A stretch of 64,000 nt of DNA, taken from positions 1-64,000 of the IMG/VR virus record IMGVR_UViG_3300037470_001039. One strand, written 5' to 3'. A program made the position numbers and the translations under genes. The notes under the pieces were generated by a model. The model ran no database searches. It saw nothing but the letters and a program-made list of their open reading frames with translations, and was not told the DNA's origin. This DNA is from a virus. Within the stretch, counting starts at the first letter, position 1, and every line of letters begins with the position of its first letter. Positions 5,618 through 55,036 of this stretch are shown in pieces.

Positions 5618-5619
5618 TT

Positions 5620-5634
5620 CGGTGGCCGGCCTAT
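5620..5634 (+). promoter_or_regulatory. Candidate late-promoter motif CGGT-N6-CCTAT
   Basis: Same motif and spacing at 13547-13561; variant at 25216-25230; all intergenic upstream of virion genes. Confidence 0.4.
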
Positions 5635-5678
5635 AGGCCCCCGCAAGAGAGGACCGGCATCTCCGGCCGAGGAAGCCC

Positions 5679-7925: not shown

Positions 7926-7951
7926 CCGGAACCAACTTTGTGCTGTGGTAG

Positions 7952-10900
7952 ATGAGCGTCTTCGGCTACGGGCTTGAGCCTTACGGGTACGGACCCTACG
8001 GGGGGCTCGGCGGCGTCACGTTGCCGCCCACGGTCCCTCCAATCGGAGGTTATGGCGGCTACGCGTACGGACTCAACTCTTACGGTTCGCTCGGGGGGTT
8101 CGGCAAGCCGACCATCGCGGTCACCGGAGGATACGGCGGCTGCTCCTACGGCACGAGTTCCTACGGCTGCGTGGATGCTCTCGGAACTCCGCCTGAGGTC
8201 ATCGCGGCGATTTCGATCACCGGGTTCATCATCGAGGTATTTTTCTCCCAGGAGATGTCGCCCGACGCCGACCTCTTCGACCCCGCGAGTTACACTCTCA
8301 TCGACATCACCGGCGCGGCGCCTGTCACGGTCCTGAGCGTCGAGGTTGGAGTCGAGGGATACTGGGGACCGACCTCCGTCCTCCTCAACCACACCGGCAC
8401 GACGCTTGGCGGCCTCTACCGCGTCGTCGTCTCGGGTCCTCGAGACATCGGGGGCACGGCGATCGCCGCTTACGCCCCGCTCAACCAGGCGGACGTACTG
8501 TGCAAGGGCGAGCCTCCGCCGTTCACCATCACGCCGATCTCGGGCACCGAGCTGCTGTACGAATTCGAGTATGACATGCTCGACGAGGCGGGGTTCTCGC
8601 CCGGCATCGAGGAGCTCGACGCCTACGGGTTCATCACCACGTACCCGCAGAACATCCTCCCGCAGTTCGTCACGTTCCCGCACAACGCCGATCTCAAGCA
8701 AATGAAGATGGACGTCATCGGCATGACGTCCGCTGAGTACGTCGGCGTCGTCAGCCCCGCCACGGCCATCGACTACGACGCGACCTACCTGCCCAACGCG
8801 CCGCAGGCAGACTTCATCTCCCAGGAGATCGGCGACGGCACGACGACGCAGGGCGTGAACGAGATCCTGTTCAGCAAGCAGGTGGGTTTCTCCTACGGGT
8901 GGAGATTCCTCGACACGTCGGGACGTCTGCTGCCGGACTCGAGCTACCGGGTCGACATCACCTTCGACGCCGCGGCCGAGGCGTCGAAGATCGACCCGGC
9001 CCCCGCGGCCGCCCCGGTGATCCTCGTCCTCGTCAACGACGGGGCCGTGCAGGTGAGTCTCGGCTTCAAGCGGCTCGCGGGCGTCGACACCCTCGAGATC
9101 GAGTCGGGAGCGTTCAGCGCGAGCTCGAGCATCAACTGGTCCTCGCAGGAGGTCACCGTCTCCCTCGTGCGGAACCAGAAGGCGGACACGTACACCGTCG
9201 TCGTGAACGGAGAGCCCATCGTAGCCGGCCTGACCGCGAGTTTCATGGCTCCTCCCGGGTTCCCTGCCGGTGTCCAGTTCCACCTCGACCCCACCGGCGT
9301 CTACGAAATCCTGGACTTCCCGCTCAAGGGTCTCGTCTTCACCGCCACGCAGACGATCTTCTCGGCCGCGTGGAACTTCCTCCACAACCAGAACGCACCC
9401 TTCGTCGGGAACGGCGCGAACGCGAAGGACTTCCTGCTCACGAAGAAGGGGCCGCTGGTGAAGGGCTGGGGCGACGCCACCCCGGCCACCAAGCAGGACG
9501 TGGTCGTCTACGTGAACGGAACGCCCGTCGAGGTGCTGCTTGTCAACCCGTACTACGGCAAGATCTTTCTGACGATCCCGATCCCGTTCATGCCTCCGGG
9601 CGTGATGGAGGTGACCGTCGACTACATCTGGTTCCCGTCGCCCATCATGGCGATGGCGGGCCTCAACACGCTCGGGCTCGTGCTCAACAAGGCTGACTGC
9701 AAGCCGCTGTGTCCGACGGGCGGCAACTCGGAGGGCGTGGGGCTCCCGGGCGGCGGCACGAACGGCATCGAGTTCTCGCGCTTCCCGATGGGGATTGTGC
9801 TCGGACCTGGCAGGCCGCAGACGCGCAAGCCTCTGCTCCGTAGCCCCCGCTTCATCGCGTTCCAGCAGCAGTACACGGCCGCTCTCAACAGCCCGACGAC
9901 GCTCCTGCTCAACCGGAACCCCGACCAGATCGCGCTCGAGGGGGAGAGACGAGACATCTCCGGCGAGGTCGTGTTCTACGAGGGCACCGTCGATCCCACG
10001 GAGGACACCCCCGCGTGGGAGGAGGTAGGCACCAACGAGATCTTCAGTCTCTCGGAGTTTTCCATCACGGGAGGGGACCCCGACACGTTCGACGGAGATC
10101 CCAATCTCCCCGACAATGTCCTCGCCATCCCGGACGCCCAGGCGCAGGGCATCTACCAGATCTACAAAGTCACGGCCGGTCCTTACGGGGAAGGACAGGT
10201 TGCGTTCTTCAGCCGCGAGATCAACACGAGTTTCCCGTCCTCGATCACCCTCGTGACGCGACTCCAGATCCTCGAGTCCGAGGACGTCAACGTCGAGGAC
10301 CCCGATCTCGACGACATCCCGGTGCCCGACGGTGTGTTCGTGGGGGTGGGTTTCGGGTGCCACACGAACAACCACCTCTATCTCGTGGGGGCGCTCCTGA
10401 TCAACGACGTGCAGCACGTCGGCATGCTTGTCGAGCCCGCCTTCCCCGAACTCGGGGAGTCGTGGGAGTTCGCCTACCAGACTCCCATCCAGGTCCAGGA
10501 CGCCACAACGTTCAGCGCGCAAAGCGACGAGCTGCCGCAGCTCATCCGGGAGCGCCTCATCTCCGACGAGATCGTGCGCTTCCAGATCATGGACGGCACG
10601 CAGGCCGGCGTGTACGATGTGCTCGAGATCATCGACCAGACGGACGGCACAAGCACGGTCTCCATCGACTCCTCAAGCCCCTTCCCGGCCGACCCGAGCC
10701 TGTACGGGAACCGCGACTTCACGGCCGTGTTCGAGGCGCGGTGGGACGGAGACAACGAGGAGAACAACCCCATCACGTACCGTCTCGTCGTCAAGAACGA
10801 CGTGAAGGGCATTCCCGAGGGGTACGCGGAACTCTACGTCGGAGGGTCCTTCTCGGGCGTGGCGCTGACGCTTGAGGGAGCGCCCCCGTTCGCCATCCCT

Positions 10901-40665: not shown

Positions 40666-41940
40666 TCGAGCCCGTGGAGATCCGACGACCGGTCGGAGAC
40701 CGTGCCCCCACGGCGCGGCTCTACTACGGGGCCGACTGTCGGGAGACCCTGCGCGGACTCCCGGAACGGTCTGTCCACTGCGTCGTCACGAGCCCTCCCT
40801 ACTGGGGACTGCGCGACTACGGGGGCGCCGCACAGATCGGTCTCGAGGACAGTCCCGAGCAGTTCGTCGCTCAGCTCGTCGAGGTGTTCCGCGAGGTGCA
40901 CAGGGTGCTCCGCGACGACGGCACCCTGTGGCTCAACCTCGGCGACAGCTACGTGCAGGCGCGAGGGCACGGACACTGGGAGAGCCGAGGAGGTAAGGGG
41001 GACGAGAAGGGGCAGAAGGTCGCGCAGCGGTGGGCCAAGATGGGCGCAGAGGACATCGGGCTCAAGCCGAAGGACCTCGTAGGGGTCCCGTGGATGGTGG
41101 CCTTCGCTCTGCGAGCCGACGGCTGGTACCTCCGGTCAGACATCATCTGGGCGAAGTCGAGCTGCATGCCCGAGAGCATCGGCGACCGCCCGACCAAGGC
41201 GCACGAGTACCTGTTCCTTCTGACCAAGCAGCCGCGGTACTTCTACGACGCCTACGCCATTCGAGAGCCGATCACCACGAAGCCTCAGGGGCGCAAGACT
41301 ACGGAGGCGTTCTCCGACACGAGTCGACCCGACCACCGCAAGGCGTCGATGAGCTACCGGTACGACGGGGTTCCTCCGGGCAACCCCGCCGGTCGTAACA
41401 AGAGGACGGTCTGGACCGTGAATCCAATCCCGTACCCGGGGGCCCACTTCGCCGTCTTCCCTCCGAAGCTCGTGGAGCCGTGCATCCTCGCGGGCACCTC
41501 GGAGAAGGGCTGCTGCCGAGAGTGTGGGGCCCCGTGGCGACGCGTCGTCGAGCGCGACGACGTGCGACCGAGCGACCGAGCGAGCGCGACGACGTGCGAC
41601 CGAGCGACCGCGACGGGGGGGATGACGGTCGAACAGGGGTGGGAGCGCAGCGGCATGTCCCACTTCAAGTACAACGAATGGCTCAAGGAGAACGCGCACG
41701 GTCGGATGGGTGCCTTCGTGCGACTGCGAGGCGGGTGACCCGGTGCCATGCACCGTGCTCGATTCCTTCAGCGGCTCGGCGACGACTGGCCTCGTGGCGT
41801 TCGACCACGGCCGCGACTACGTGGGCCTCGACCTCAACGCCGAGTATCTCGAACTCGGCCGCGCTCGGCTGCTCGGGGAACGGCCCCCGAAGCCCGGCGA
41901 CGGAGATGACGACCGAGGCATATTGGAGTTTTTCGGATGA
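40662..41940 (+). pseudogene. Beta-class N4-C/N6-A DNA methyltransferase, frameshifted near 41697
   Basis: GTG 40662; VTSPPY, RVLRDDG and HFAVFPP in frame 1; TVGWVPSCDC...VLDSFSGSATTG continues in the +1 frame to 41940. Confidence 0.8.
41549..41610 (+). repeat. 32-bp tandem duplication within the MTase variable loop
   Basis: cgagcgcgacgacgtgcgaccgagcgaccg at 41549 and 41581. Confidence 0.85.
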
Positions 41941-44405
41941 GCATCGAGCCTGTCGAGATTTGCAGACCCCTGGGGGACAAGCCCGCCACCGCCACGCTCC
42001 TGTACGGCGCGAGCTGCCTCGAGTCCCTTCGCGAGCTGCCGGAGGGGTCCGTCCACTGCATGGTCACGTCTCCGCCTTACTGGGGTCTCCGGGACTACGG
42101 GGGCGAGTCGCAGGTGTGGGGAGGCGACCCGGCCTGCGAGCACGGGTGGGGCGAGATGGGACCTCCCCACCACCCGAACCAGGTCGAGCAGACCAAGTGG
42201 AAGACGGCCGAGGCCACGGGGAAAGGGCAGACCGCCGGCAGCGGTCAGTTTTGCCAGAAGTGCGACGCGTGGCTCGGCCAGTTCGGGCTCGAGCCTACGC
42301 CGCAGATGTACACGGAGCACCTCGTCGAGATCTTCCGCGAGATCCGCCGCGTGCTTCGAGACGACGGGACGTGTTGGCTGAACCTCGGAGACAGCTACGC
42401 GGGCGCCGGGCCGTTGGGGGCGAGTTACCAGTCCGAGACTACGAAGCGTCAAGCGGGGCAGCAGCACGACGGGAACTTCTCGCTCTCGAAGCGTCTCGGC
42501 GAGCGCGGGCTGACCTACAACGAGAAGAAGCCGGTGCCCCCGCCGGGCCTCAAGAGCAAGGACCTCGTGGGCGTACCGTGGCGAGCCGCCTTCGCGCTCC
42601 AGGACGACGGCTGGTACCTGCGGAGCGAAATTATTTGGTGCCTGAGCGGAGGCACTCGCGTCTACGCCCGGACGAAACGGACTGAAAGTCCGATGATGAT
42701 CCACGAACTCGTGCGTCTCAACCCGGCTGATGTCCAGCTCTGGAACGGAGAGAGGTGGACGCAGGTGCTCGGATGGTCGGAGACCCCACGCCCCGATGAG
42801 ACTTTCGAGATCGAGCTCAGGAACGGAGAACGAATCGGGTGCACGGGGGGTCATGAATGGCCCACGCAACGAGGGATCGTGCGTGCCGATGAAATTCAAG
42901 AAGGTGACGTCATCGAGACTTGCCGCCTCCCCGCACCGCCGGAACTGCAGACTCCAGACCTGCTCCCGGACGAGGAGATCGGTTGGTTCGTGGGCACCTA
43001 CCTCGCCGACGGCAGCAAGGGCGATCACGACACGATTCTTCAGATCGCGAGTCACATGGACGAGGACCGCCGGTTCTCTCGTCTGTCGGACTTGGCCCGG
43101 TCCTACGGGGGGACCTGTGCACGCCACCAGACGTCCGAGAACGGTTGCATGATCAACCTCCATGGGCCCGTGCTTCACGGGATCGTGGAGCAGTACCTTC
43201 GCGGGCGCACGGCCAAGGACAAGCATCTCGATCCCCGTTGCTGGCGGCGCAGCGACGCGTTCCTTGAGGCGCTGATGCGAGGCTACCTCGCCGGAGACGG
43301 ACACCACGACGACCCCAATTCCCGCTGGCGTCTCGGTTTTTGCCAAAACGACAGGCTGGCCGACGACCTGCGGACGGTGTGCGCCCGAATCGGCTGGTCG
43401 TGTCGTCTTCGTCGCTGTCAACACCAGATGGGGGATCGCAAGTTCGCCGGGTGGGGGGGCGACGTTAAAGTAGCCCGCGGGACCCACTGGAACGCGAAAG
43501 AGGACGGTGAGGTCGTGGCGATCCGGCGTTCGCGAGCACGCAAGTTCTGGGACATCGGGGTCGCAGACGAGCCCCATCTTTTCGCGTTGGCCTCTGGAGT
43601 CTTGACGCACAACAGCAAGCCCAACCCCCTTCCGGAAAGCGTGCGGGATCGAGTCACGCGGGCTCACGAGCACATCTTCATGCTCACGAAGAAGGCGCGC
43701 TACTTCTACGATCACGACGCCATCAAGGAGCCGATGACGATGAAACCGCAGCGTCGCCTCACGGCGCGCAGCGGCGATCGTCACGACGCGATGCGTCACG
43801 ACAAGAAGTACGACTACGACGTCAGCGACGAGCCGCACCAGCAGGGGCCCGCGAACGGGCGGAATAAGCGGTCTGTCTGGACCGTGACGCCCAGGCCCTA
43901 TCGGGGCGCCCACTTTGCGGTGTTCCCTCCCGAGCTGATCGAGCCCTGCATCCTCGCGGGCACCTCGGAGAAGGGCTGCTGCCCGATGTGCGGCAACCCT
44001 TGGGAGCGCGTCGTGGAAACGGAGGGGGGCGGCATCGCCTACGAGGGCTCGGGGGAGAACGTCCAGGGTGACCGCAAGGGGCTCGACCCGAAGAACTACG
44101 ACCGGCTCAAGATCAAGGGGGCGAGCCGCGTCACCCCGATGTCGAGGTACCGCGTCGAGTGGAAGCCGACCTGCGGCTGTCCCGAGCACGAGCCGATCCC
44201 ATGCAAGGTTCTCGATCCCTTCTCCGGGAGCGGCACGACGGGTGTCGTGTGCCTCGACAAGGGTCGCGACTACGTGGGGCTCGACCTGAACCGGGAGTAC
44301 TTGGAACTCGCTACGGCACGCCTCCTGGGCGAGGACGCGCCGAGTCGGTCCCGCGAGGACGAGGACGTCGGGATCTTGGAAATTCTGGGGGTAAAAGAGG
44401 GGTGA
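41937..44405 (+). CDS. Beta-class N4-C/N6-A DNA methyltransferase with intein
   Basis: VTSPPY, RVLRDDG, HFAVFPP, VLDPFSGSGTTG; close paralog of the upstream gene. Confidence 0.92.
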   Translation: MSIEPVEICRPLGDKPATATLLYGASCLESLRELPEGSVHCMVTSPPYWGLRDYGGESQVWGGDPACEHGWGEMGPPHHPNQVEQTKWKTAEATGKGQTAGSGQFCQKCDAWLGQFGLEPTPQMYTEHLVEIFREIRRVLRDDGTCWLNLGDSYAGAGPLGASYQSETTKRQAGQQHDGNFSLSKRLGERGLTYNEKKPVPPPGLKSKDLVGVPWRAAFALQDDGWYLRSEIIWCLSGGTRVYARTKRTESPMMIHELVRLNPADVQLWNGERWTQVLGWSETPRPDETFEIELRNGERIGCTGGHEWPTQRGIVRADEIQEGDVIETCRLPAPPELQTPDLLPDEEIGWFVGTYLADGSKGDHDTILQIASHMDEDRRFSRLSDLARSYGGTCARHQTSENGCMINLHGPVLHGIVEQYLRGRTAKDKHLDPRCWRRSDAFLEALMRGYLAGDGHHDDPNSRWRLGFCQNDRLADDLRTVCARIGWSCRLRRCQHQMGDRKFAGWGGDVKVARGTHWNAKEDGEVVAIRRSRARKFWDIGVADEPHLFALASGVLTHNSKPNPLPESVRDRVTRAHEHIFMLTKKARYFYDHDAIKEPMTMKPQRRLTARSGDRHDAMRHDKKYDYDVSDEPHQQGPANGRNKRSVWTVTPRPYRGAHFAVFPPELIEPCILAGTSEKGCCPMCGNPWERVVETEGGGIAYEGSGENVQGDRKGLDPKNYDRLKIKGASRVTPMSRYRVEWKPTCGCPEHEPIPCKVLDPFSGSGTTGVVCLDKGRDYVGLDLNREYLELATARLLGEDAPSRSREDEDVGILEILGVKEG
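42639..43613 (+). mobile_element. Intein (325 aa) in DNA methyltransferase
   Basis: EIIW|CLSGGTRV...SGVLTHN|SKPNP; FVGTYLADG and LMRGYLAGDG endonuclease blocks. Confidence 0.92.
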
Positions 44406-45352
44406 AGCGGCCCTACGCAGACCCCGACTGCCCCAAGTGCAAGGGCGACGGGTGGCTCTACGCCAGGTCCATGATCACGCTACCCGGCGACCGCGGCGGA
44501 CGGGACTGCGACTGCACCCTCGACCACCATCGACGCGCGAACATGGAGCGCGTATGGCCGTCGCTGTCTGGCGCCAAGGAGGCGACGGGGCTCCGCGAAC
44601 CGTGCCCTCTTCTCGGGCTCGTCAAGCGCAATCTGTGGATCACGGCCAAGGAGAACGTCTTCCGCGCCCACCTCAAGGCGGTCTGCTACCGCAAGCACCA
44701 TCTGTGGGACGCCAAGGTGTGGTCGGACAAGGATCTCGTGAAAGCGTGGCTGAACACCGCCTACGCACAGGGCCACAAGGTCTACGACACCGAGCTCGAC
44801 AATGTGCGCGTGACGGCCATGTACATCGACGAACTCGTTGAGTCCTATGAACTCGTCGTCTTCGTCCTCGGCGTGAAGGAGGCTCCGAACAAGGAGACCC
44901 CCTCCGTGCTCCTCGAGGCCATCAAGACGCGACGTCACTTGGGGCGTTCGTCGTGGGTCGTCGACCAGCCGCAGCGTCCTCTGATGACTCCCGAACACCG
45001 GGCGTACAGCGAAGCACTTGAGGGGATGCTGAAGCACTGGCCCCACATCCACATCACCGGCTCGGGTTCCCTCAAGATCGTGGGAGGCTCGGTGCACGAG
45101 TCCGATACGGTCTCGGACGTCGATCCCGACGATCCCGTCGAAGAGGACGAGGCGTCGGCCGAGATCAACAAAGCGCTCTCGAATCTCGACGAGGAGGGCG
45201 AGGAGGGCGAGGACGACGTTGTCGTTTCAGCCAGCATGCGGAGTTTCTTGAACCAGATGGCGCAGAACGAGGAGGTGCAGGAGGAACAGGCGCGTCGCAA
45301 GATGTTCAAGAAACGGTCGAGCAAGAAGCCCCCGCGGGGAGGACGCAAGTGA
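44402..45352 (+). CDS. Zn-binding protein, possible degenerate DnaC/IstB-like helicase loader
   Basis: GTG 44402; CPKCKGDGW...CDC N-terminus as in phage loader proteins; overlaps the start of the dnaB-like gene; no Walker A visible. Confidence 0.45.
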   Translation: MKRPYADPDCPKCKGDGWLYARSMITLPGDRGGRDCDCTLDHHRRANMERVWPSLSGAKEATGLREPCPLLGLVKRNLWITAKENVFRAHLKAVCYRKHHLWDAKVWSDKDLVKAWLNTAYAQGHKVYDTELDNVRVTAMYIDELVESYELVVFVLGVKEAPNKETPSVLLEAIKTRRHLGRSSWVVDQPQRPLMTPEHRAYSEALEGMLKHWPHIHITGSGSLKIVGGSVHESDTVSDVDPDDPVEEDEASAEINKALSNLDEEGEEGEDDVVVSASMRSFLNQMAQNEEVQEEQARRKMFKKRSSKKPPRGGRK

Positions 45353-48213
45353 AGAATCTGCTTCGTTCCTGTTTCATCGCAGCGCCTACCGACAGCGAGC
45401 CGCTGTGCTCCCAGAACTACCACGCGATGGTGGAGTCTGGTCTCGGGTTCGACACGCCCGAGGACGTCATCATCTGGACCTTCCTCCAGGACTTCTTCAA
45501 GACCTACGGGCACGTCCCGAACGTCCAGACGATGCGTCAGCACTTCACGTCGGTGCAGGAGGCCGACGTCGTCGATCGTCTCGAGCGCGTCGCCATGATC
45601 AAGCCCCGCACCCGGGGCGACTTCCTGACCTACCTCGAAGAGAAGGCGAAGGACCGACGCAACCGCGTCACGATCGACCTCTTCAAGGAGGCCGCGAAGA
45701 TCATCTCGACGGGTGTCGAGATCAAGGACCCGCGCGGGAACACCACGAAGCTGCTCGGGGCCCTCGACGCCATCCGGTACGTCCTCGACGGCAGCCACGG
45801 CATCGTCGCGCCGACGCTCGGCAGCAAACTCTCGGGCAACCTGACGCAGGACGGCGAGGACTTCCTGAGCCGTTACGACAGAGTCAAGGCGGACCCACGC
45901 TACGGCGTCGGCCAGTACTGCGGCATCAGCCAGATCGACGCCGCCCTTAAGGGCGCGAAACGGTACGAGCTGTGGATTCACGCCGGCTTCACCGGGTCGA
46001 TGAAGTCCACGTTCGCGTTGCACTGGGCCTACGTGCAGGCGGTCTACTTCGGCTTCTCGGCGGTCTACTTTTCGCTCGAGATGCCCTACGTGCAGTGCCG
46101 CAACATCATCTACACGATGCACACGGCCCACGAGGATTTCGCGGAGATCCGCGAACAGCTCGGCATCGAAGGGATCGGACTCGACTACGAGAAGGTCCGC
46201 GACGGCACTCTGTCCCCCAACGAGGAGAAGTTCCTCAAGGAGTACGTCGTCCCCGACCTCGGCGGCCGGTCCACGGTGCCGCACGGCGGCCCGTACAGCC
46301 TCAAGGCCGAGGAGTACGGGTCGATCCATCTTGAGGTCGCGGACCCGGACAAGTCGGACTTCACCATCGCCGACCTCCGCAGCCGGGCCGAGCTCATCTT
46401 CTCGAAGACGCCCTTCGCGATGATCGTCGTGGACCACGCTGGCCTCATGAGCGCGCGCGGTCGCTACTCCAACACGACGGAGAAACTCAACGAGGTCGTC
46501 CGCGATCTCAAGCGCCTCGCCATGTCGTTCAACCGCGGCATGGGTCTTGCGGTTCTCTGCCTTTTCCAGATCAGCCGAGAGGGATACAGGGCCGCCGAAA
46601 AGAACGGGGGCCGCTACAACCTCACCCACCTCAGCTACGCGAATGAGTGCGCGGTTCGCGCCACCGCGGTACTCACGGACGCGGGAATCGCGCCCATCGA
46701 GCAGATCGAGCCTGGAACTCGCGTGTGGAGCCGTTCTGGGTGGAAACAAGTTCTTCACAGATTCGACCAAGGCAAGCGTCGGGTCTGGCGGGTGACCACG
46801 GACCGAGGGGACATCCTCGAAGTCACCGGCAACCACCGAGTGCGTATCCTTCGGGATGGCGACATTGGCTGGTGTCGCGTGAGAAGCCTAAAGCCCGGAG
46901 ACTGCGTACTCTCCACGCGAGGGGACTATCCGTGGGCGTCCAAGACGCCCCGACTGCCCAAAGGAGGGCGCCCTTCGACGCACCTCACGGAGGCTTTGGC
47001 CTATCTGCTTGGGGCATGGGACGGGGACGGGAAAATTCGTCCCGACAAGATCGCGTTCACGGGGAACCGTAACGAGAAAACGCTGCGGCGTCGCCTCCTG
47101 ACGACGTTCTCCTCCGTGTTCGGAGAGGACCTGTTGAGGTATCTGTTCCCGAGCCGTCCGGGATCTTTCGATGACGAATCAAGAGCCCACCGAGAGCGCA
47201 CGAAGTGGTTCGAGCAGCTCGCAGGACAACGCGGTGTGCAGGTTCCAGAGATCATCCTGCGGTCGCCTGCCCGCTTCGTGATCTCCTACCTGCGTGGCCT
47301 GTGGGACACCGACGGTTGGATCAACTCGCAGAACATCGTGGGCCTCAAGATGAAGTCACGGGAGTTCCTCGCTCAGGTCCAGATGCTGATGACGCACCTC
47401 GGCTACGAGACCAAGCTGGTACGCACGGACACCTTCCTGCGGAAGACTGGAAAATCATACGAAGGATGGACGCTGCGTCTGCTCGGATACGAGTCCCGTC
47501 TCCAGTTCAGCGAGGAGATCGGTTTCACGGAACCATGGAAAAAGCGGCGTCTGACGGCCTCGGTGCAGCAGGCGCCGCAACGCAAAACGACCGACCAAAC
47601 CTACCCGGTTCCTGAAATCTACCTGGGACTTTACGACGACCACACTCCTTACCGTCTCATCGCCGAGGGACGACTGCCGAAGTCGCATTACAACGCGATG
47701 CGAAAAGTTCGGGAAACGGGCCTCGTATGTCGTCAAGCTGCGCAGTCCATGCTGGCTTTCCTCGATGACGAGGGCATCACGGATCCTCGCGCAGAGGCGC
47801 TCCGGCATCTACTTGCTCTCCAAGTGTGTCGTGTGGAATCTGTCGAACGTACTGAGCGCGTCGAAGAGGTCTACGACCTGGAGGTGGACGGTGACCACGA
47901 ATTCCAGACGGGACCCCTCCTGTCGCACAACTGCGAGCGGTCGGCCGACATCGTGACGGCGGCGTGGATCGACGAAGCGCTTCGCAGCATTGACAAGCTC
48001 ATCTTCCAGTGCCTCAAGTCACGCGACCAAGCTCCCTTCGAGCGCGTCCCAGTGCGGGTAGCATTCACGTGTCGTCGTCTTCTGACGGACGACACCCCTA
48101 TGTCCGAGGTTGACGCCGAGATTCAGCATAAGAAGGGCGGCGAAGACGAGGATCAGAAGCAATGGCGCAAGCGGACCAAGAAGCAGCAGGAAACCCCTGA
48201 CCTGGAGTTGTGA
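45349..48213 (+). CDS. dnaB: DnaB-like replicative helicase with intein
   Basis: AGFTGSMKS (Walker A), FSLEM, IVVDH, LKRLA, QISREG, ERSADIV. Confidence 0.9.
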   Translation: MKNLLRSCFIAAPTDSEPLCSQNYHAMVESGLGFDTPEDVIIWTFLQDFFKTYGHVPNVQTMRQHFTSVQEADVVDRLERVAMIKPRTRGDFLTYLEEKAKDRRNRVTIDLFKEAAKIISTGVEIKDPRGNTTKLLGALDAIRYVLDGSHGIVAPTLGSKLSGNLTQDGEDFLSRYDRVKADPRYGVGQYCGISQIDAALKGAKRYELWIHAGFTGSMKSTFALHWAYVQAVYFGFSAVYFSLEMPYVQCRNIIYTMHTAHEDFAEIREQLGIEGIGLDYEKVRDGTLSPNEEKFLKEYVVPDLGGRSTVPHGGPYSLKAEEYGSIHLEVADPDKSDFTIADLRSRAELIFSKTPFAMIVVDHAGLMSARGRYSNTTEKLNEVVRDLKRLAMSFNRGMGLAVLCLFQISREGYRAAEKNGGRYNLTHLSYANECAVRATAVLTDAGIAPIEQIEPGTRVWSRSGWKQVLHRFDQGKRRVWRVTTDRGDILEVTGNHRVRILRDGDIGWCRVRSLKPGDCVLSTRGDYPWASKTPRLPKGGRPSTHLTEALAYLLGAWDGDGKIRPDKIAFTGNRNEKTLRRRLLTTFSSVFGEDLLRYLFPSRPGSFDDESRAHRERTKWFEQLAGQRGVQVPEIILRSPARFVISYLRGLWDTDGWINSQNIVGLKMKSREFLAQVQMLMTHLGYETKLVRTDTFLRKTGKSYEGWTLRLLGYESRLQFSEEIGFTEPWKKRRLTASVQQAPQRKTTDQTYPVPEIYLGLYDDHTPYRLIAEGRLPKSHYNAMRKVRETGLVCRQAAQSMLAFLDDEGITDPRAEALRHLLALQVCRVESVERTERVEEVYDLEVDGDHEFQTGPLLSHNCERSADIVTAAWIDEALRSIDKLIFQCLKSRDQAPFERVPVRVAFTCRRLLTDDTPMSEVDAEIQHKKGGEDEDQKQWRKRTKKQQETPDLEL
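46648..47931 (+). mobile_element. Intein (428 aa) in DnaB-like helicase
   Basis: YANE|CAVRATAVLT...YDLEVDGDHEFQTGPLLSHN|C; LLGAWDGDG and YLRGLWDTDG blocks. Confidence 0.92.
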
Positions 48214-48806
48214 TGGCGCTGCTGATCCGACTCTGGCAGGGCAACTGCCTCGACCACCTCCGAGACCTGCCTGACGCGTCCGTGGACGCTTTCGTGGGGG
48301 ATCCTCCTTACGATCTGTGTTTCATGGCAAAGGAGTGGGACGACAACGACGTCCTGCGCAACGACAAGATCTGGCGCGAGTGCCTCCGCACCCTCATCCC
48401 GGGCGGCATACTCAAGCAGTTCTCGGCCCCGCGCACCTACCATCGCCTGTGCAAGACCCTTGAGACGGTGGGTTTCCTCGACGTTAAATTGCATGCTTGG
48501 GTGCACGGGCAGGGATTCCCCAAAGGGAAAAACATCAGCGCAGCCATCGACAAAATGCTAGGAGTTGAACGAGAAATTGTAGGCTATAAACGGGGAGTGG
48601 AAGGAGAAAACCTGAACGACATCGTTCATGGGCGGAAGGTCCGGCAGACGACGGATCAGGGCGGAAAAGGCGCCAAACAAGTCGCTGTCGACGTTCCCAT
48701 CACTGTTCCCACAACGGAGTTAGCAAAGCTATGGCAGGGGTACAACGTGGCGCTGAAACCCGCGTGGGAGCCTGTCGTGGTCGCGAGGAAATTTGATGCC
48801 GGTTGA
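48210..48806 (+). CDS. DNA adenine methyltransferase N-terminal half (DPPY present, SAM-binding motif I absent)
   Basis: DASVDAFVGDPPY, RTYHRL, GQGFPK, ALKPAWEPVVVARK then stop. Confidence 0.85.
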   Translation: MMALLIRLWQGNCLDHLRDLPDASVDAFVGDPPYDLCFMAKEWDDNDVLRNDKIWRECLRTLIPGGILKQFSAPRTYHRLCKTLETVGFLDVKLHAWVHGQGFPKGKNISAAIDKMLGVEREIVGYKRGVEGENLNDIVHGRKVRQTTDQGGKGAKQVAVDVPITVPTTELAKLWQGYNVALKPAWEPVVVARKFDAG

Positions 48807-49449
48807 ATGCACCTGCGAACACTGCGGCGCCCGTCTTCTACGTTCGCCGTCCCACGTTCGTGGGCGCGTGTTCTGCAGTCGAGACTGTCGTTCGCAGGCG
48901 GCTCACCCCACGCGGATTTGTGAGGGGTGCGGCACCGGTTTCCCGCGGGATCCCAAGCAACCGGAGGCGCGTCACTGCTCTTGGGACTGCTACAGGGGAT
49001 CTCGATTCGTGGAGGAGGTCTGCCACGTCTGCGAGAAGACGTTCCAAGGGTATCTGAGTGAGAGACGCAAACGGCAGCAACGGCGTCACGTCACCTGCTG
49101 TTCTCGGTCGTGTCGCAACGTCTACACCTCCCTCTTGTTGGGGGGTGACGGGACGTGGGTGCTCGGTGGTCGCTACAACAAGAAACGAGATCGAGGCTGG
49201 CCGTGGAGAAAGGTGCGGCTACGGTACCTTCACTTCGTCAACTTTACCTGCGAAGGCTGCGGGGAAGAGGCGACGACAGTCCACCATCTCCATCAAACGG
49301 CTGCCGGCGGTGCTGTCCTGGACCCGACCAACCTGATGGCCGTGTGTAAAGACTGCCACGACAACATGCACGAACAACTCAACGAGGGCGCGTTCTGGTG
49401 TTCTTTCGAGGGGCTGGGGTTCGACCGGACGTTGGCGGAGGTAACCTGA
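48793..49449 (+). CDS. HNH endonuclease with N-terminal CxxC...CSxxC zinc repeats
   Basis: Three CxxC...CSxxC modules, then CEGC...VHH...NLMAVCKDCH. Confidence 0.85.
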   Translation: MMPVECTCEHCGARLLRSPSHVRGRVFCSRDCRSQAAHPTRICEGCGTGFPRDPKQPEARHCSWDCYRGSRFVEEVCHVCEKTFQGYLSERRKRQQRRHVTCCSRSCRNVYTSLLLGGDGTWVLGGRYNKKRDRGWPWRKVRLRYLHFVNFTCEGCGEEATTVHHLHQTAAGGAVLDPTNLMAVCKDCHDNMHEQLNEGAFWCSFEGLGFDRTLAEVT

Positions 49450-49452
49450 TAC

Positions 49453-50115
49453 ATGAAGAACCGACGCGAATTCCTCCAGATGCTCGGGGTCGGCGGCGCA
49501 GGCCTGGTCTTGGCGACGAACGCGGCCGCGAACCCGATCGTCCCGCTGTTCTCCGGGCGCGAATCGAAAATCTGGACGCCGGAGCACACGAGCCTGACGC
49601 GGAGTCATCTCGTCCTCACGCGCCCCCAAGGTGCTCCCTTTGCGTTCCCAAGTACGAGGGGCATGCTGCTCACCCCCTCGGATGAAGATCTCAACATCCC
49701 CTCGGTGAAGGTGCTTCTACATCCTGAGCAAGATCCTCATGAAGCGTTCTACAAGGCTGCGACGGAGATGCGAAGGAGTTTCTCTGAACAGTCCCTGCAG
49801 AGGTTTGCCGGGATCCCGGAGTGGAAACGACGCGATGCCGTCCTGATCACGCTGGTGGACACGGAAATTTTCGCAGGTTCTCTGGAGACGAGCGACGAGG
49901 GGTTCTATCTCGAGGTCAGCTACACCCCCTACCACGTCAGCAGTCCTGATCTGGAGAGCCTCAACCTCAACGGGTGGGGGGTCTACTCGGAGAATGGCGA
50001 GTACCCGATCGAGGTCCCGTCTGAGATCGACATGGATCGCTTGCTCAGTGTCGACTGCCGTATCGTGTGCGGGGAGATGACCACCAGCACCCTCGGCGGC
50101 GTGCTCGTCGGATAA
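49453..50115 (+). CDS. Hypothetical protein with twin-arginine (Tat) signal peptide
   Basis: MKNRREFLQMLGVGGAGLVLATNAAA: RRxFL motif, hydrophobic stretch and AxA site; GGAGG RBS. Confidence 0.7.
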   Translation: MKNRREFLQMLGVGGAGLVLATNAAANPIVPLFSGRESKIWTPEHTSLTRSHLVLTRPQGAPFAFPSTRGMLLTPSDEDLNIPSVKVLLHPEQDPHEAFYKAATEMRRSFSEQSLQRFAGIPEWKRRDAVLITLVDTEIFAGSLETSDEGFYLEVSYTPYHVSSPDLESLNLNGWGVYSENGEYPIEVPSEIDMDRLLSVDCRIVCGEMTTSTLGGVLVG

Positions 50116-50124
50116 CAGACCCGC

Positions 50125-51624
50125 ATGCGCGTCGTGACTCTCAGTCGGAAGCCGTGTGCCGCTTCAAGCACCACGGCCAATGTCGTCAAGCACGAGGCAG
50201 GCGCACTGAACATCGACGGCTGTCGCATCCACTACGCAAGGGATGAACCGGATAGTGGAGTGAACTACTACCGGCATCGGGACCTGGAGATGTCTCAAAA
50301 CCGGCACAACTACTTCCGCGGGCCTGATCGCGTCATGGTGGCGTCACCTCCTGCGGGAGGGCGCTGGCCCGCGAACCTTTTCCTCGTTCATCGAGCCTCG
50401 TGCGAGGTGCGGGGCACAGTTGCGGGGCCGGGCTACACCATCAACCGGTGGAAAGACGGCGCCAAGCCTTTCGGCGGAGGTGCGGGGCACGAGTACGAGT
50501 CTGAGGAGCAGCCGGCCGAGCAGGTCGCCGTGTGGGACTGTGCGGAGAATTGTGCTTCGTGGGCTCTGGGTGAGCAAAGTGGTGTGTGTCCCACGGGTGA
50601 CGTTGCGGCTTACACTCGCAAAAACACAGAGTTCTATATGGGGCGCCAACCCGGCATGGCGACCTCTCTCCATAGAGGAGATACGGGGACTGCTTCTCGC
50701 TACTTCAAGCAGATGAAGGAGGAGGACGACGACATGGACGGAATGCCTCAAGAAATGGTTGACTACCTCGCCACGCTGATCTCGCCGCCTCCGTCGTGCA
50801 ACCCCGTGGTCATCGTTCAGATGAGCCTCAAGGACTACCCGTGGGAGGAGCATGAGGACGCGTCGGTTCACGGGCTCATCACGATGGGCAACCCGGGGCC
50901 ACACATGCAGGACATCGACCGCGTCCTTCGACCTGGAGCGCACCTCCTGATCCTGTCACCCGAGAACGAGCCGACGGGACACACGGGTGCGTGCGCGGTC
51001 GAGGACTTCGGCTACGAGATCCGAGACGCCATCGCCGTGCTCGACACTCCGGGCGATTTCCATTATGTCGCCAAAGCCAGTTCGGCCGAGCGCAACGCGG
51101 GGGTAGAGGCGCGCACGAAGGACAATGGGCGCGTCGTGCAGAACGACCACGAGACGGTGAAGCCAGTGGGCATCATGGAGCGCCTGCTCGCCGACATCCC
51201 CCGAGGTGCGCTCGTCGTGGACGCCTTCATGGGAAGCGGCACCACGGGCATCGCGTGCCTGCGCACGGGGCACGACTTCGTCGGCATCGACCAGGACCCG
51301 CAGTACCTCCAGATCGCCGACCAGCGCGTCAGGCACTGGGACCGAGTCAAGCATTCGTGGAAAGGCGCGACGATCGAGTCGGAGGCGGAGTTCCAGAAAG
51401 AGGAGTCGATGGGTCTCGAGGATCTGTTCGGTTTCGCGGCCCACGACGAGGACGACGACTTCGAGATCGGGGACTGCCCGGTGTGCGAGAAGAGAGACAC
51501 CGAGATCGAGATCAAGGAGAAGGGGGAGCGCCTCAAGGTGTGCTCCGCCTGCGCCGAGGACCGCGAACAGGTACGCCTGTACCTGCTGAAAGAAGCGCGC
51601 AGACGCGTCGAGGAACTGGAGTAG
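50125..51624 (+). CDS. Mosaic DNA methyltransferase middle plus C-terminal part (motif I present, DPPY absent)
   Basis: SRKP...GALNIDGCRI, GRWPAN, ASRYF, AKASSAER, HETVKP, VVDAFMGSGTTG; C-terminal CPVC...CSAC. Confidence 0.85.
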   Translation: MRVVTLSRKPCAASSTTANVVKHEAGALNIDGCRIHYARDEPDSGVNYYRHRDLEMSQNRHNYFRGPDRVMVASPPAGGRWPANLFLVHRASCEVRGTVAGPGYTINRWKDGAKPFGGGAGHEYESEEQPAEQVAVWDCAENCASWALGEQSGVCPTGDVAAYTRKNTEFYMGRQPGMATSLHRGDTGTASRYFKQMKEEDDDMDGMPQEMVDYLATLISPPPSCNPVVIVQMSLKDYPWEEHEDASVHGLITMGNPGPHMQDIDRVLRPGAHLLILSPENEPTGHTGACAVEDFGYEIRDAIAVLDTPGDFHYVAKASSAERNAGVEARTKDNGRVVQNDHETVKPVGIMERLLADIPRGALVVDAFMGSGTTGIACLRTGHDFVGIDQDPQYLQIADQRVRHWDRVKHSWKGATIESEAEFQKEESMGLEDLFGFAAHDEDDDFEIGDCPVCEKRDTEIEIKEKGERLKVCSACAEDREQVRLYLLKEARRRVEELE

Positions 51625-51651
51625 GAGGAGTAGGAGGAGGAGGAGGAGCAG

Positions 51652-52362
51652 ATGGCTGCCGTGTTCGACCTCAACCGCTGCGCCCACGTCGGGATGAACC
51701 CGTGGCGCGGCAATCTTCCTCTCCGAGCCGACCGCACCTTCGCCTTCGACGAGCTGCGGCAGGTGCTGGGGCTCAACTCCGGGCAGCACTTCGTCGACGT
51801 CTCCGTCATCGACAATGTTGCTGGCAACGAGCGTGCCGTGTGGCAGCCCGAGATGGGGACGCAACGTGAACGGGGACGCAACGTGAACGGGGACGCAACG
51901 TGAACGGGGACGCAACGTGAACGGGGACGCAACGTGAACGGGGACGCAACGTGGTCGCGGAACCATCCTGACATCCCTCCGCAGTTCAACCGGCAGGAAC
52001 CTCCGTGGACGCTGGGCGTCCTGCACGGTGACGGAGACAGGGTGATGTGGTGGCAAATCGAGGGGGCGACAACCCGATCGTCCTGGGGCCTGGCCCACGC
52101 TCTTACGACTTCATCGGTTACGTGGATCGGTTACGTGGATCGGCTCGTGCAGCTCAACAATCTTGGGATGCCTGTCTACGTCCACTGCAGGAACGGCACT
52201 GACCGCACTGGAGCCTCCGTCGCGGCCTTTGCCATGCGGGAGATGGGGTACACGCTCGACGAGGCGTTCAAACTCGCCGACAGCGTGAAGGCTGCGGGCA
52301 CGATGAACTCGGACTACGTCGCGCTGGTGAAGGCGTACGTGAGGGAGTCGGGGCTCAAGTGA
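51652..52362 (+). pseudogene. Cys-based tyrosine/dual-specificity phosphatase-like gene interrupted by an in-frame TGA inside a tandem repeat
   Basis: PVYVHCRNGTDRTG (HCx5R); ORFs 51652..51903 and 51934..52362 are in the same frame. Confidence 0.75.
51855..51953 (+). repeat. 17-bp perfect tandem repeat GGGGACGCAACGTGAAC x5 plus a 14-nt partial copy
   Basis: Units start at 51855, 51872, 51889, 51906, 51923 and 51940; no spacers. Confidence 0.95.
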
Positions 52363-53009
52363 GGATCGTGACGGTGGCTCGCAAGCCGTGTGTCGCCTTG
52401 AGCACCACGGTCAACGTTGTCGAGCACCAGGCCGGAGCGCTCAACGTCGACGAGTGCCGAATCAGCTACGCGAGCACGAACGACCTTCGAGAGACGCTAT
52501 CCAGGAATCCCGGCACCGATCGCCGGTTCACGTCGAATCTCTACGACACGGAGAGCGAGACGCGGCTGATGCAGAGGACGAACCCCGCAGGACGGTGGCC
52601 TACGAACGTCATCCTCCTGCACCGACGTGGCTGCAAGATGGTCGGCACACGGAAGGTATCCACTGGTACCGCCCATCGCGAGAACAGCAGCGGACGAACC
52701 ATCTTCTCCGAGACCGAGAAGCCCCCGATGGAGAACATGAGCTACGCAGACGCGGACGGGAAGGAGACCATCCCCGACTGGCAGTGCGAGCCCGGGTGTT
52801 CCGTCGCCGAGATCGACCGGCAGAGCGGGACGCTGACTTCGGGTTCTGGCGCCGTGAAGCGCGCCAGTTCGGCGCAGCGGGAGGGGAACCGGGGTGCCGC
52901 CTACGGTGCCGAGAACCGCGCGGAGGGCACGCCGATGATCTGGTACGGGGACACCGGGGGCGCCTCGCGCTTCTTCAAGGGGTTCGGAGGACAGGGATCA
53001 GGGGCCTGA
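52359..53009 (+). CDS. Stand-alone middle segment of a DNA methyltransferase (neither DPPY nor motif I)
   Basis: ARKP...GALNVDECRI, GRWPTN, GDTGGASRFF; paralogous to the N-part of 50125..51624. Confidence 0.8.
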   Translation: MRIVTVARKPCVALSTTVNVVEHQAGALNVDECRISYASTNDLRETLSRNPGTDRRFTSNLYDTESETRLMQRTNPAGRWPTNVILLHRRGCKMVGTRKVSTGTAHRENSSGRTIFSETEKPPMENMSYADADGKETIPDWQCEPGCSVAEIDRQSGTLTSGSGAVKRASSAQREGNRGAAYGAENRAEGTPMIWYGDTGGASRFFKGFGGQGSGA

Positions 53010-53010
53010 C

Positions 53011-53048
53011 GGGGCCTCCCCCGCGGTTCGGGGCCTGAGCCCCCTTTT
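53011..53048 (+). terminator. Possible intrinsic terminator after the MTase cluster
   Basis: Imperfect GC-rich inverted repeat (GGGGCCTC...GAGCCCC) followed by TTTT. Confidence 0.35.
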
Positions 53049-53094
53049 GTGCAATTAAAGGGTAGGGGCCGATCCCTATCGTAAAACTCCCGAG

Positions 53095-53691
53095 ATGAGT
53101 CGGACCGAGATGTACCTCGTGGACCGCGTCGTCGGCGACGTCGTCCCCCTCGCCACTCTCCAGAACGCGCACGGGGGCGCGATGGCCATCTGGCGCATCT
53201 TCGCGGAGAAGCGCCTCGGCATCTCCGGGATGTCATTCACGATGCTGATGATGGATGGGATGCGTACGATCTTCCAGGCCGCCCGGGAGGGCAAGTTCGA
53301 GCCGTGGGAGACGGTGACACTCATGACCACGACCGACAAGGTGATCGTGCCCACCGAGCACGTTGCCTCCGTCGCCTCCGCGCTCCAGAAGTTCGCCGAC
53401 GAGCACGGCCCCGAGATGGAGGCGAACAACTTCGTGTTCCACGTCGGCGAGCAGGCGAAGGTGCTCCGCGACTACGTCGAGCAGTCCGAGAGGGAGTCCC
53501 TGTGGGACGACGTGCAGCTCACCGAGGAGGAGCATACGCTCGCCGTCGAGGAGGACGGCATCGGTGTGTCGTCGAAGTGGTCTGAGGAGGCGCGGCCCTA
53601 TAACGTCGACAGGGACAACGACGGACACTGGTTCTGGCCCGAGACCCCGAAGGACGCCGCCAACGTCGAGGCGCTCAAGGGCACGGCATGA
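53095..53691 (+). CDS. Hypothetical protein (198 aa)
   Basis: ORF with coding-like composition; ATGA overlap with the next gene. Confidence 0.65.
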   Translation: MSRTEMYLVDRVVGDVVPLATLQNAHGGAMAIWRIFAEKRLGISGMSFTMLMMDGMRTIFQAAREGKFEPWETVTLMTTTDKVIVPTEHVASVASALQKFADEHGPEMEANNFVFHVGEQAKVLRDYVEQSERESLWDDVQLTEEEHTLAVEEDGIGVSSKWSEEARPYNVDRDNDGHWFWPETPKDAANVEALKGTA

Positions 53692-54242
53692 GCCTCGATG
53701 ATTTCCCCGACGCCTTCCTCGCGACTCTCCGCGACATGTTCGGCGGCGTGGACGAGAACAAGATTGAGCACGTCCGACGCCTCTACGCCATCTGGACGGC
53801 GGCGCAGGACGACGAGTGTCGCGCGGCCTTCAGGTTCGTCTCCAAGCAGGTCGAGGGATCGAACGACAAGGCCGAGCGCATGAGGATCTCGTGGCTCCTC
53901 GGTAACGGGACCTACTGGACGAGGATCCCCGACGTGAGGGCGCGTCCGTGGTGGCTCTCCGAGCCCGAGGACTGGAAGGCTCACGTCGCGGACCGGCTCA
54001 AGGTGCGCCGCGTGGGCGTCGATCGGTGGCACGTCTACGACCGGGATGACGGGGAGCACGTCGCCCGCGTCACGAAGGAAGGGGGCGCCTACGAGGTCTG
54101 GCACCTCTCGGACGACCCGAAAGAGGTGGTCGAGGTACGGTTCCACCATATGTGGACCGCCGCGATGCAGGACGTGGTGGCCCGGCAGGTCGTCCGACAG
54201 CATTTCGTGCAGATTGCGCCCCAAGCCCCCGAGAAGGTGTAA
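53688..54242 (+). CDS. Hypothetical protein (184 aa)
   Basis: ATGA overlap; coding-like composition. Confidence 0.65.
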   Translation: MSLDDFPDAFLATLRDMFGGVDENKIEHVRRLYAIWTAAQDDECRAAFRFVSKQVEGSNDKAERMRISWLLGNGTYWTRIPDVRARPWWLSEPEDWKAHVADRLKVRRVGVDRWHVYDRDDGEHVARVTKEGGAYEVWHLSDDPKEVVEVRFHHMWTAAMQDVVARQVVRQHFVQIAPQAPEKV

Positions 54243-54274
54243 AAACTTCGCCGACCCCGTACAGGGAACGACCC

Positions 54275-55036
54275 ATGAGCCAGCGCGACATTCAAGATCT
54301 CGTAGAGCAGCTTCAGCAGGCGCAGGACGCCTACTACAACGGCGATCCCGTGATGTCGGACGCGGAGTTCGACGCTCTCGAGGACGAGCTCCGAGGACGA
54401 GCTCCGAAGAACGCCTACTTCAAGCGCGTGGGGTCCGGCATGGTCAGGTCCCCGGCCGATCTCTACGGCCTCGACGAGGCCAAGCTCGCCGCGCTCACCC
54501 TCTCGGGCAAGAAGGTCGGCGACAGCACGGCCAAGAGGGTCATGAAGAACCTGCGCGCCAAGATGGAGCTTCGCATCGCGGACTTCGTCGGCTCGCTCGG
54601 CATCGACATGTGGGGGCGCTCCATGACGCAGTTCATCGTCGACGCGGGCCTCGACACCCTGGAGAAGATGGAGGACGCCACCGTGGCGCAGATCTCCGCG
54701 ATCCCGGGGGTGGGCGACACCAAGGCCGTGAAGTTCGTCGAGGGGTTCCGCCGGAGTCGCAAGATGATCGACGAGCTTCTCGCGGCCGGCGTGGAGGTGA
54801 AGAAGCCCATCACGGGCGGCAAGCTCTCGGGCGTCTCGTTCTGCTTCACCGGGGTGCGTGACCCGGCCTTCGCCGACGACCTCTTGGAGGCCGGGGGCAC
54901 CGTCAAGAACAGCGTCGGGAAGGGGCTGACCTACCTCGTCGCCAAGGACCCCAAGAGCAACAGCGGGAAGGCCAAGAAGGCTCGAGCACAGGGCACCGAG
55001 GTGATCTCCCTGGAGGAAGCCAAGGCGCTCCTGTAG
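54275..55036 (+). CDS. ligA: Internally deleted NAD-dependent DNA ligase derivative (domain Ia + HhH + BRCT only, 253 aa)
   Basis: AYYNGDPVMSDAEFDALEDEL (Ia), ADLYGL, SLGIDMWG, IPGVGDTKA (HhH), FCFTG...GGTVKNSV...YLV...SGKAKKARAQG (BRCT); no KxDG. Confidence 0.85.
   Translation: MSQRDIQDLVEQLQQAQDAYYNGDPVMSDAEFDALEDELRGRAPKNAYFKRVGSGMVRSPADLYGLDEAKLAALTLSGKKVGDSTAKRVMKNLRAKMELRIADFVGSLGIDMWGRSMTQFIVDAGLDTLEKMEDATVAQISAIPGVGDTKAVKFVEGFRRSRKMIDELLAAGVEVKKPITGGKLSGVSFCFTGVRDPAFADDLLEAGGTVKNSVGKGLTYLVAKDPKSNSGKAKKARAQGTEVISLEEAKALL

Follow-up and report, generated by a model that had tools for sequence, protein, structure and literature searches.

Three genes, here called A, B, and C, lie in a replication-type gene block (45.3-55 kb, + strand) of a 64,000-nucleotide stretch of viral DNA comprising positions 1 to 64,000 of IMG/VR virus record IMGVR_UViG_3300037470_001039 (hereafter, the window). 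Each resembles part of a DNA methyltransferase and none is complete, raising the question of whether they are remnants of a broken gene or subunits of a working enzyme. Our analysis points to the latter: A, B, and C are likely to be subunits of one heteromeric β-class DNA amino-methyltransferase with plug-in recognition modules; the DPPY motif in A makes N6-adenine the probable target. The 95.6-kb record to which the window belongs is rated only 18% complete by CheckV, indicating that the phage is very large, and the entire record contains one A, one B, and one C. All three open reading frames (ORFs) are open, on the + strand, and placed as in an earlier reading of the letters alone (the sequence-only reading), whose description of their motifs, their homologous starts, the blocks running from GRWP.N to GDTG.ASR(Y/F)F, and the presence of an S-adenosylmethionine (SAM)-binding motif in B only is borne out. 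That reading put A at 48210-48806; the end stands, and while a start at GTG 48210 is possible, ATG 48213, with GGAG upstream and overlapping the dnaB stop, is likelier. The pieces, with lengths in amino acids (aa), and the parts of B are as follows:

48213-48806, + strand: A, catalytic N-terminal half, 197 aa
50125-51624, + strand: B, 499 aa
50125-50718, + strand: B residues 1-198, module M1, junction strand and conserved frame with variable stretches; presumed target-recognition domain (TRD)
50719-51060, + strand: B residues 199-312, relic second N-terminal half, with RVLRPGAHLL and GYEIRDAIAVL, and with GNPGP at the DPPY position
51061-51444, + strand: B residues 313-440, SAM-binding half with HYVAKASSAER, NDHETVKP, and VVDAFMGSGTTG, and tail GLEDLFGF
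51445-51624, + strand: B residues 441-499, CxxC...CxxC (CPVC...CSAC) and a long helix, shared only with the closest homologs, proteins P0002, P0003, P0006, and P0007
52359-53009, + strand: C, free-standing module M2, 216 aa

A contains the catalytic half of the expected fold and nothing of the SAM-binding half. In particular, it carries VDAFVGDPPYDL and has motifs IV-VIII, represented by DPPY (in GDPPYDL, residues 29-35), RTLIPGG, GQGFPKG, and ALKPAWEPVVVARK; its terminus is ...ALKPAWEPVVVARKFDAG, with the stop codon four residues past ARK of the VVVARK strand; and motifs X and I-III are altogether missing. A resembles the N-terminal halves of CcrM, RsrI, and M.BceJIV, is 44-46% identical to those of one-piece phage enzymes (~45% for mycobacteriophage Nala gp101), and falls in phrog_6025/phrog_67 of PHROGs, annotated 'DNA methyltransferase'; Pfam gives no match in A or C. 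An alignment of 15 A-type halves from 8 contigs (related contigs are referred to here by handles such as L174) shows that truncation at this point is the rule: the stop codon falls 0-12 residues past the (A/G)RK junction in 15/15, GSGFPK is kept in 15/15, and DPPY is kept in 14/15, the exception being an L174 copy that, as called, begins downstream of the motif.

B comprises a module, a relic half, and a SAM-binding half. It opens with MRVVTLSRKPC...GALNIDGCRI, followed by GRWPANL, GDTGTASRYFKQ, and then the SAM motif. The module has the frame GALNIDGCRI / GRWPAN / H..C...W.C..C / QSG / GD.G.ASRYFKQ and occupies the position of the TRD in one-piece β-class enzymes, between motif VIII and motif X. 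The following segment shows a weak but consistent alignment to the region of one-piece enzymes that A matches (Bcore 61-130). The presence of GNPGP where DPPY is expected, at a site that is unconserved among relatives (GTPTD, SEPTD, RGVGD, or GKRAD, varying freely), indicates that this relic half is catalytically dead. For the same reason, we rejected the candidate interpretation of B as a complete, circularly permuted, self-active enzyme. The SAM-binding half is well preserved: B 333-398 alone among A, B, and C matches PF01555 (N6_N4_Mtase; 56 bits, cut-off 26.7); M.BceJIV (6e-21), M1.HpyAVI, CcrM, and MboIIA are its matches in the PDB; residues D366, F368, G370, S371, and G372 are invariant in the alignment of B homologs; and D.F.GSG is kept in all SAM-binding bodies, mostly as DPF.GSG and in the window as DAFMGSG (in DAFMGSGTTG). 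An AlphaFold2 model of B alone has a predicted local distance difference test score (pLDDT) of 68, with the relic half its best part (pLDDT >90). Foldseek matches of this model to β-class enzymes have low template-modelling scores (TM-scores), and no topology was taken from them.

Two further features of the SAM-binding bodies were seen. All of them have an acidic stretch and a terminal [LFM]xx[LFM]F(G) (e.g. GLEDLFGF, B 430-437, 51412-51435), which, in a survey of the tails in L001, L081, L169, and L173-L185, looks like a sliding-clamp-binding motif; the window methyltransferase ORFs ending at 41940 and 44405 have the C-termini ..GILEFFG and ..GILEILGV. In the B homolog of L001 (8001-10559, 852 aa), ~335 inserted residues immediately precede the conserved T.KP motif; the boundaries of the insert are intein-like (Cys at the start and HN ahead of the downstream Thr). 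Several other B homologs of ~790-870 aa are probably also intein-bearing, among them P0009 and P0028 (both named intein/homing endonuclease in their source) and P0044 (Pfam Hint domain).

C is a module homologous to that of B. It opens with MRIVTVARKPC...GALNVDECRI, followed by GRWPTNV, and ends at GDTGGASRFFKG, with the SAM motif absent; its start codon is a GTG overlapping the stop of the preceding phosphatase gene (GTGA). B 1-195 shares 32% identity with C (BLASTP E = 9e-27, far above chance), with GALN(I/V)D, GRWP.N, and GDTG.ASR(Y/F)F in common and with differing variable stretches between them. PHROGs places C in phrog_3008, annotated 'DNA methyltransferase', and C has orthologs at L001 10563-11207 (53% identity) and L081 10567-11193 (50%). 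In models of the separate chains, the first strand has a pLDDT of 43 in C and 89 in B, consistent with a strand that requires a partner sheet. The larger modules have an invariant H...C ... C...C set (C residues 88, 92, 143, and 147; ~52620-52802) that is probably a zinc site; in short modules, such as those at L081 9507-9971 and 11193-11633, the whole H...C/C...C insert is missing.

The order of the motifs explains how the pieces relate to one another. Ordinary phage methyltransferases contain an A-type half, a module, and a SAM half in one ORF, as in Nala gp101 (410 aa), so the sequence-only reading was right that one-piece enzymes hold these blocks contiguously with the variable region between them. 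The order IV-VIII, TRD, X-I-III holds across A, the module, and the SAM half here as in those relatives, and the single polypeptide usual in the β class is not found: motifs IV and I lie in separate genes, 1.3 kb apart. The ..(I/V)(V/L)ARKP strand and the SRFFY.AKAS junction occur once each in one-piece proteins; in the window, both are duplicated. Specifically, A ends with VVVARK and modules start with RVVT..RKP, while modules end with SR(Y/F)FK and FHYVAKAS follows residue 310 of B. The proposal that all three genes break at the same place therefore holds as regards a homologous junction, but not as regards a simple cut, since both junctions are present on either side. Likewise, B and C do contain two homologous modules, but they are not equivalent alternative partners of A: B has a dead N-terminal half and, as the sole SAM-binding part, is obligatory.

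Structure prediction supports association of A and B. We predicted the complex of A with B(1-445), using our own alignments, in three runs with three controls. The interface score ipSAE was 0.89, 0.89, and 0.88, and that of the best of the 3 controls was 0.00; in the calibration of the tool, which is only rough here because our own alignments were used, the mark is reached by 58/80 solved complexes and 2/110 mismatched pairs. The three runs share ≥81% of contacts, with partner pLDDT ≥77. In the model, the strand of A that leads into DPPY (24-28) lies paired with the strand of B that leads into FMGSG (363-366); as modelled, this is the canonical β4-β1 pairing forming the SAM and catalytic pocket. 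In addition, A 6-8 contacts B 385-388; the A helix at ~77-80 contacts the relic-half helix at B 286-290; and the A C-terminal segment 173-189 contacts the first strand of B (1-6), the module frame (15-32, 80-85, and 190-194, with A 177-185 touching 26-32 and 80-85), strand 299-306, and the junction at 311-317. At the module residues in contact with A, the B module and C are 68% identical, compared with 25% at the other residues, indicating that C keeps the docking frame and varies the remainder. Across 10 modules, conservation is 0.80 for A-touching residues and 0.43 for the others (permutation p < 1e-4).

The split is kept in related phages. Profiles of A, of the module (B 1-198, C, and relatives), and of the remainder of B were run over ~245 loci; queries with the B alignment against viral and metagenome contigs yielded generic methyltransferase patterns, mostly one-piece enzymes, and the module alignment performed better. 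Separate genes were found in 9 other phage contigs (L001, L081, L185, L173, L183, L174, L175, L177, and L169), with adjacent genes abutting tightly or overlapping, mostly by 4 nt at the stop/start. These contigs have 1-6 A halves and 1-7 modules, always with a single SAM-binding body, and most have no homing endonuclease. L001, L081, and L185 share the synteny or layout of the window: in L001, a viral contig of 213 kb, dnaB is followed by A (ending VVIARKP), a Cys-rich ORF, a Tat-like ORF, the intein-bearing B, and C; L081 has dnaB, A, no endonuclease gene, a Tat-like ORF, B, and then 5 tandem free modules with 4-nt overlaps; and in L185, A, B, and a free module directly abut. The other loci are more distant. 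In L173 and L183, A, module, and SAM-binding body are three genes, with A at 9438-9998, the module at 9998-10651, and the body at 10651-11364 in L173; in L175, six modules, the body, two A halves, and a seventh module follow one another in that order; in L177 (436 kb), an A half accompanies four free modules and a fusion of module and body; and L169 (= L002), at 2639-11801, has one body, then six DPPY-bearing A halves, each different, and six modules, indicating that the catalytic half is also multiplied in some phages. Some relatives, such as L173, L175, and L169, have no fused module at all. Some of the L169 A halves have Cys-rich inserts. A scan of genome contigs returned a single weak relative, in a Gemmatimonadota metagenome-assembled genome, so the close form seems essentially confined to phage contigs, and a DNA-level search of cultured phages gave short methyltransferase matches only.

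Free modules are common beyond these loci. A whole-library profile search returned 1,080 proteins at E ≤ 1e-30, and the architectures of the best 150 cluster representatives were read. Among these 150 are 63 stand-alone modules of 170-250 aa, which start at the junction strand and mostly end right after GGASRFFKQV, 8 two-module one-chain enzymes, and 1 protein with three modules, a relic half, and a SAM half. Tandem modules within one polypeptide (A-M-M-C or M-M-M-relic-C) were seen in P0121, P0125-P0127, P0145, P0156, and P0168; judged by their layout, these chains are the in-chain counterparts of the free-module arrays. The architecture is widespread, found mainly in large phage contigs, and apparently undescribed; the window has a small version of it, in which a single catalytic half and a single body come with one spare module.

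All three genes are under purifying selection. In comparisons of the window with L001 and L081, in which synonymous sites are saturated (proportion of synonymous differences, pS, 0.57-0.70) and all frames are open, the ratio of nonsynonymous to synonymous change (dN/dS) is 0.18-0.19 for A, 0.26-0.31 for the B module, 0.28 for the B core, and 0.43-0.48 for C, with 0.26 for DnaB as comparison. The module ends of L081 and the window are conserved as protein only (third-position identity ~0.5), indicating functional constraint on the termini; the 88-98% DNA identity of the module flanks in L175 indicates recent duplication or gene conversion there. The B module of L001 is a mosaic, its first variable stretch being like window C and its second like window B, indicating that modules recombine. 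The 5′ ends of B and C in the window have 75% DNA identity over 109 nt, and a repeat search of the window found no near-identical flanks suggesting DNA-level cassette switching. Together, the split kept in 9 contigs, the dN/dS values of 0.18-0.48, and an A-B model that scores far above its controls with canonical strand pairing support the sequence-only proposal of a methyltransferase assembled in trans from incomplete genes.

On this basis, we propose the following enzyme. A would provide the catalytic half of a Rossmann-like fold, strands β4-β7 with DPPY, and the C-terminal half of B would provide the SAM-binding part, motif X and β1-β3, the two combining into a composite active domain. An eroded second N-terminal half, the middle of B, would pack on A as the second protomer does in the usual β-class homodimer, so that the active protomer would consist of A and the B C-terminal half, and only the relic half and a module would remain of the recognition protomer. 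The N-terminal module of B would be the TRD, its leading strand probably completing the relic half. C would most likely replace the module of B itself or fill a second equivalent site, directing the enzyme to another target sequence; since B has a tethered module, access for C would involve either competition for one socket or a second site. The likely use would be methylation by the phage of its own DNA as protection from several host restriction systems. We have good confidence in A and B as parts of one enzyme; a second specificity through C has a slightly better than even chance.

Several observations weigh against this proposal. A PDB search with the module profile gave no match, so that the TRD role is assigned from position in the fold; the AlphaFold2 model of C alone is poor (pLDDT 61); the dN/dS of C, the highest of the three, fits a diversifying recognition part but also relaxed constraint; the tethered module of B should outcompete a free module at a single site; and the A-B score may partly be memory of the solved one-piece fold, reflecting likeness rather than binding.

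The difficulties concerning C lead to the alternative that survives best, in which A and B form an enzyme and C acts as a regulator or decoy competing for the docking site, as a chaperone of A, or as the partner of another of the phage's methyltransferases. The tethered module in B and the constraint on C, the weakest of the pieces, are as this alternative would have them, and the record contains other methyltransferase genes, at 41626-44402 and 67883-68734, that could be partners. However, a search found no module or junction homology in those methyltransferases, C retains the A-contacting frame of the B module, and arrays of up to 7 diverse tandem modules, together with relatives that have no fused module, fit a library of specificities better than a single regulator. 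We consider this alternative unlikely.

A second alternative accepts the complex but not its anti-restriction role, making it a replication-coupled epigenetic marker or a clamp-tethered DNA-binding factor acting via the ..LEDLFG tail. The genes directly follow dnaB in a replication module, and every SAM-binding body ends in the acidic tail resembling clamp-binding motifs. Against this, the catalytic residues of A and the SAM-binding residues of B are intact, and diversified recognition modules are what varied host restriction pressure would be expected to produce. We regard this alternative as improbable. The tail hints at clamp coupling, which would go together with self-protective methylation at the fork or with another role; the two roles do not exclude each other.

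Two further alternatives depend on the genes around and between the pieces:

45349-48213, + strand: dnaB with a LAGLIDADG intein
~48796-49449, + strand: HNH homing-endonuclease gene (PF01844, E = 2e-6; phrog_1271/589)
49453-50115, + strand: 220-aa ORF with a twin-arginine-like signal, between the HNH gene and B
51934-52362, + strand: dual-specificity phosphatase gene, between B and C

The HNH gene overlaps the last codons of A, and the final residues of A, FDAG, are unlike the ..ARKP ending of relatives, as would be expected if the pieces were decaying remnants of a one-piece gene broken by the HNH insertion. The sequence-only reading named this case, with an intact gene in relatives, as one that would overturn it, and it is contradicted and very improbable: L081, L185, L173, L183, and L175 have the split without an endonuclease gene; L001 has at the same spot (6672-7196) a different Cys-rich ORF, HNH-like by eye and without a significant Pfam match; the frames are open at saturated synonymous divergence with dN/dS well below 1; and both junctions are duplicated, not cut. 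The split is older than the endonuclease gene and independent of it; the HNH gene is an optional later insertion outside the enzyme and did not cause the break into pieces. The 3′ end of A resembles an insertion hot spot. The least probable alternative, that splicing, frameshifting, or ribosome hopping joins the pieces into one polypeptide, has in its favor the many inteins and homing endonucleases in the region, but founders on the absence of any Rfam intron or ribozyme in 47800-53300, on every module and every B having a start codon of its own, placed at one homologous residue (≥63 independent clusters), on an A-B join that would hold the ..ARKP strand twice, unlike any one-piece relative, and on the ~1.3 kb and two ORFs between A and B.

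As to the neighboring genes, the DnaB proteins of L001 and L081 do not have the LAGLIDADG intein seen in the window DnaB. The 220-aa ORF, with its twin-arginine-like signal RREFLQMLGVGGAG, is a conserved neighbor among the closest relatives only: L001 (7206-7997) and L081 (7185-7991) have a homolog between A and B, and none lies there in L185 or L173; it has no Pfam or PHROG family, and a protein atlas gave nothing above chance. A 17-bp tandem repeat, ~6-7 copies of GGGGACGCAACGTGAAC, at 51838-51990, runs from upstream of the phosphatase ORF into it. An NAD-ligase-like ORF at 54152-55036 encodes 294 aa consisting of a LigA N-terminus joined to a helix-hairpin-helix (HhH)/BRCT end, and the syntenic gene of L001 (12301-14259) encodes a full 652-aa LigA.

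The proposed enzyme resembles several known systems in part. One-piece β-class enzymes (Nala gp101 among phages; CcrM, M.RsrI, M.BceJIV, and M1.HpyAVI) have the same motifs in the same order, DPPY ... GSGFPK ... ARKP / GALNID..GRWPAN..SRFF / AKAS.ER..HPTVKP..DPF.GSGTTG; what differs here is the separation into genes, the duplicated junctions, the extra dead N-terminal half on the SAM body, and the free extra modules. In type I systems, HsdM is a complete γ-class enzyme and HsdS carries two TRDs on a coiled-coil scaffold. The likeness is one of function, in that a separate, recombination-exchangeable specificity subunit directs a common methylase; there is no sequence relation between HsdS and the modules, C having no Pfam match and the module profile no PDB match. 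In phage Aeh1, a homing-endonuclease gene, mobE, reportedly lies between the halves of nrdA, an enzyme gene that probably still works. The HNH gene is likewise situated between pieces, but in the present case the split is older than, and independent of, the endonuclease gene, and in L081, L185, L173, L183, and L175 it is not tied to an insertion.

The dimeric enzymes offer closer parallels to the A-B interface. β-class methyltransferases act as dimers, with the TRD of each such pair's one protomer turned toward the catalytic site of its partner, a 'division of labor' (PMC7544214) that the predicted A-B contacts fit; the EcoP15I Mod2 and CcrM dimers (PMC7544214) have this same arrangement, as proposed here. 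In METTL3-METTL14 and the ciliate MTA1-MTA9 (PMC7544214), an active protomer is aided in substrate binding by a partner with an eroded motif IV, as here, where B has GNPGP; however, each partner in the METTL3-METTL14 type is a complete fold with a SAM half, whereas A is not a complete fold and the dead half is fused to the sole SAM half.

Exchangeable recognition and split chains are known among C5-cytosine (C5) enzymes. The enzymes of Bacillus phages SPR, phi3T, and rho11s, from the Trautner laboratory, are multispecific (cited in PMC7544214, references 86-87): one core carries several interchangeable TRDs, presumably for evading several restriction systems, much as proposed for the modules here. 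Their TRDs stand in tandem in one C5 chain, whereas the present modules are separate proteins of an amino-methyltransferase; the PC and ENV motifs of C5 enzymes were not found, and the motifs and families found were those of amino-methyltransferases only. M.AquI and M.EcoHK31I are natural two-polypeptide DNA methyltransferases (PMC3404938) whose fold is reconstituted from two separately encoded chains, as proposed here, but they are bacterial C5 enzymes with other split points and no spare recognition modules. In our literature coverage, which was incomplete, we found no published account of split amino-methyltransferases with free modules.

Extending the proposal from the window to huge phages in general, we suggest, tentatively and at somewhat less than an even chance, that the β-class homodimer has become a hard-wired 'one-and-a-half-mer'. 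A would complete the lone SAM half in trans; the dead half would serve as a socket into which free modules plug by strand insertion; the number of specificities would be the number of modules, and in some phages the number of catalytic variants would be the number of A halves, giving an undescribed combinatorial library at the protein level.

These results carry a warning for annotation: many short 'hypothetical' phage ORFs would be methyltransferase subunits (≥63 module clusters in the best 150), and counts of PF01555 matches would misjudge the number of phage methylation specificities. With recognition and catalysis on different chains, the system would be a natural test of the β-class 'division of labor' and would provide programmable adenine methylation with a natural, minimal scaffold. 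Were the predicted assembly to hold, β-class target choice would be delegated to small exchangeable proteins, which would constitute a new route by which phages keep up with diverse host restriction systems.

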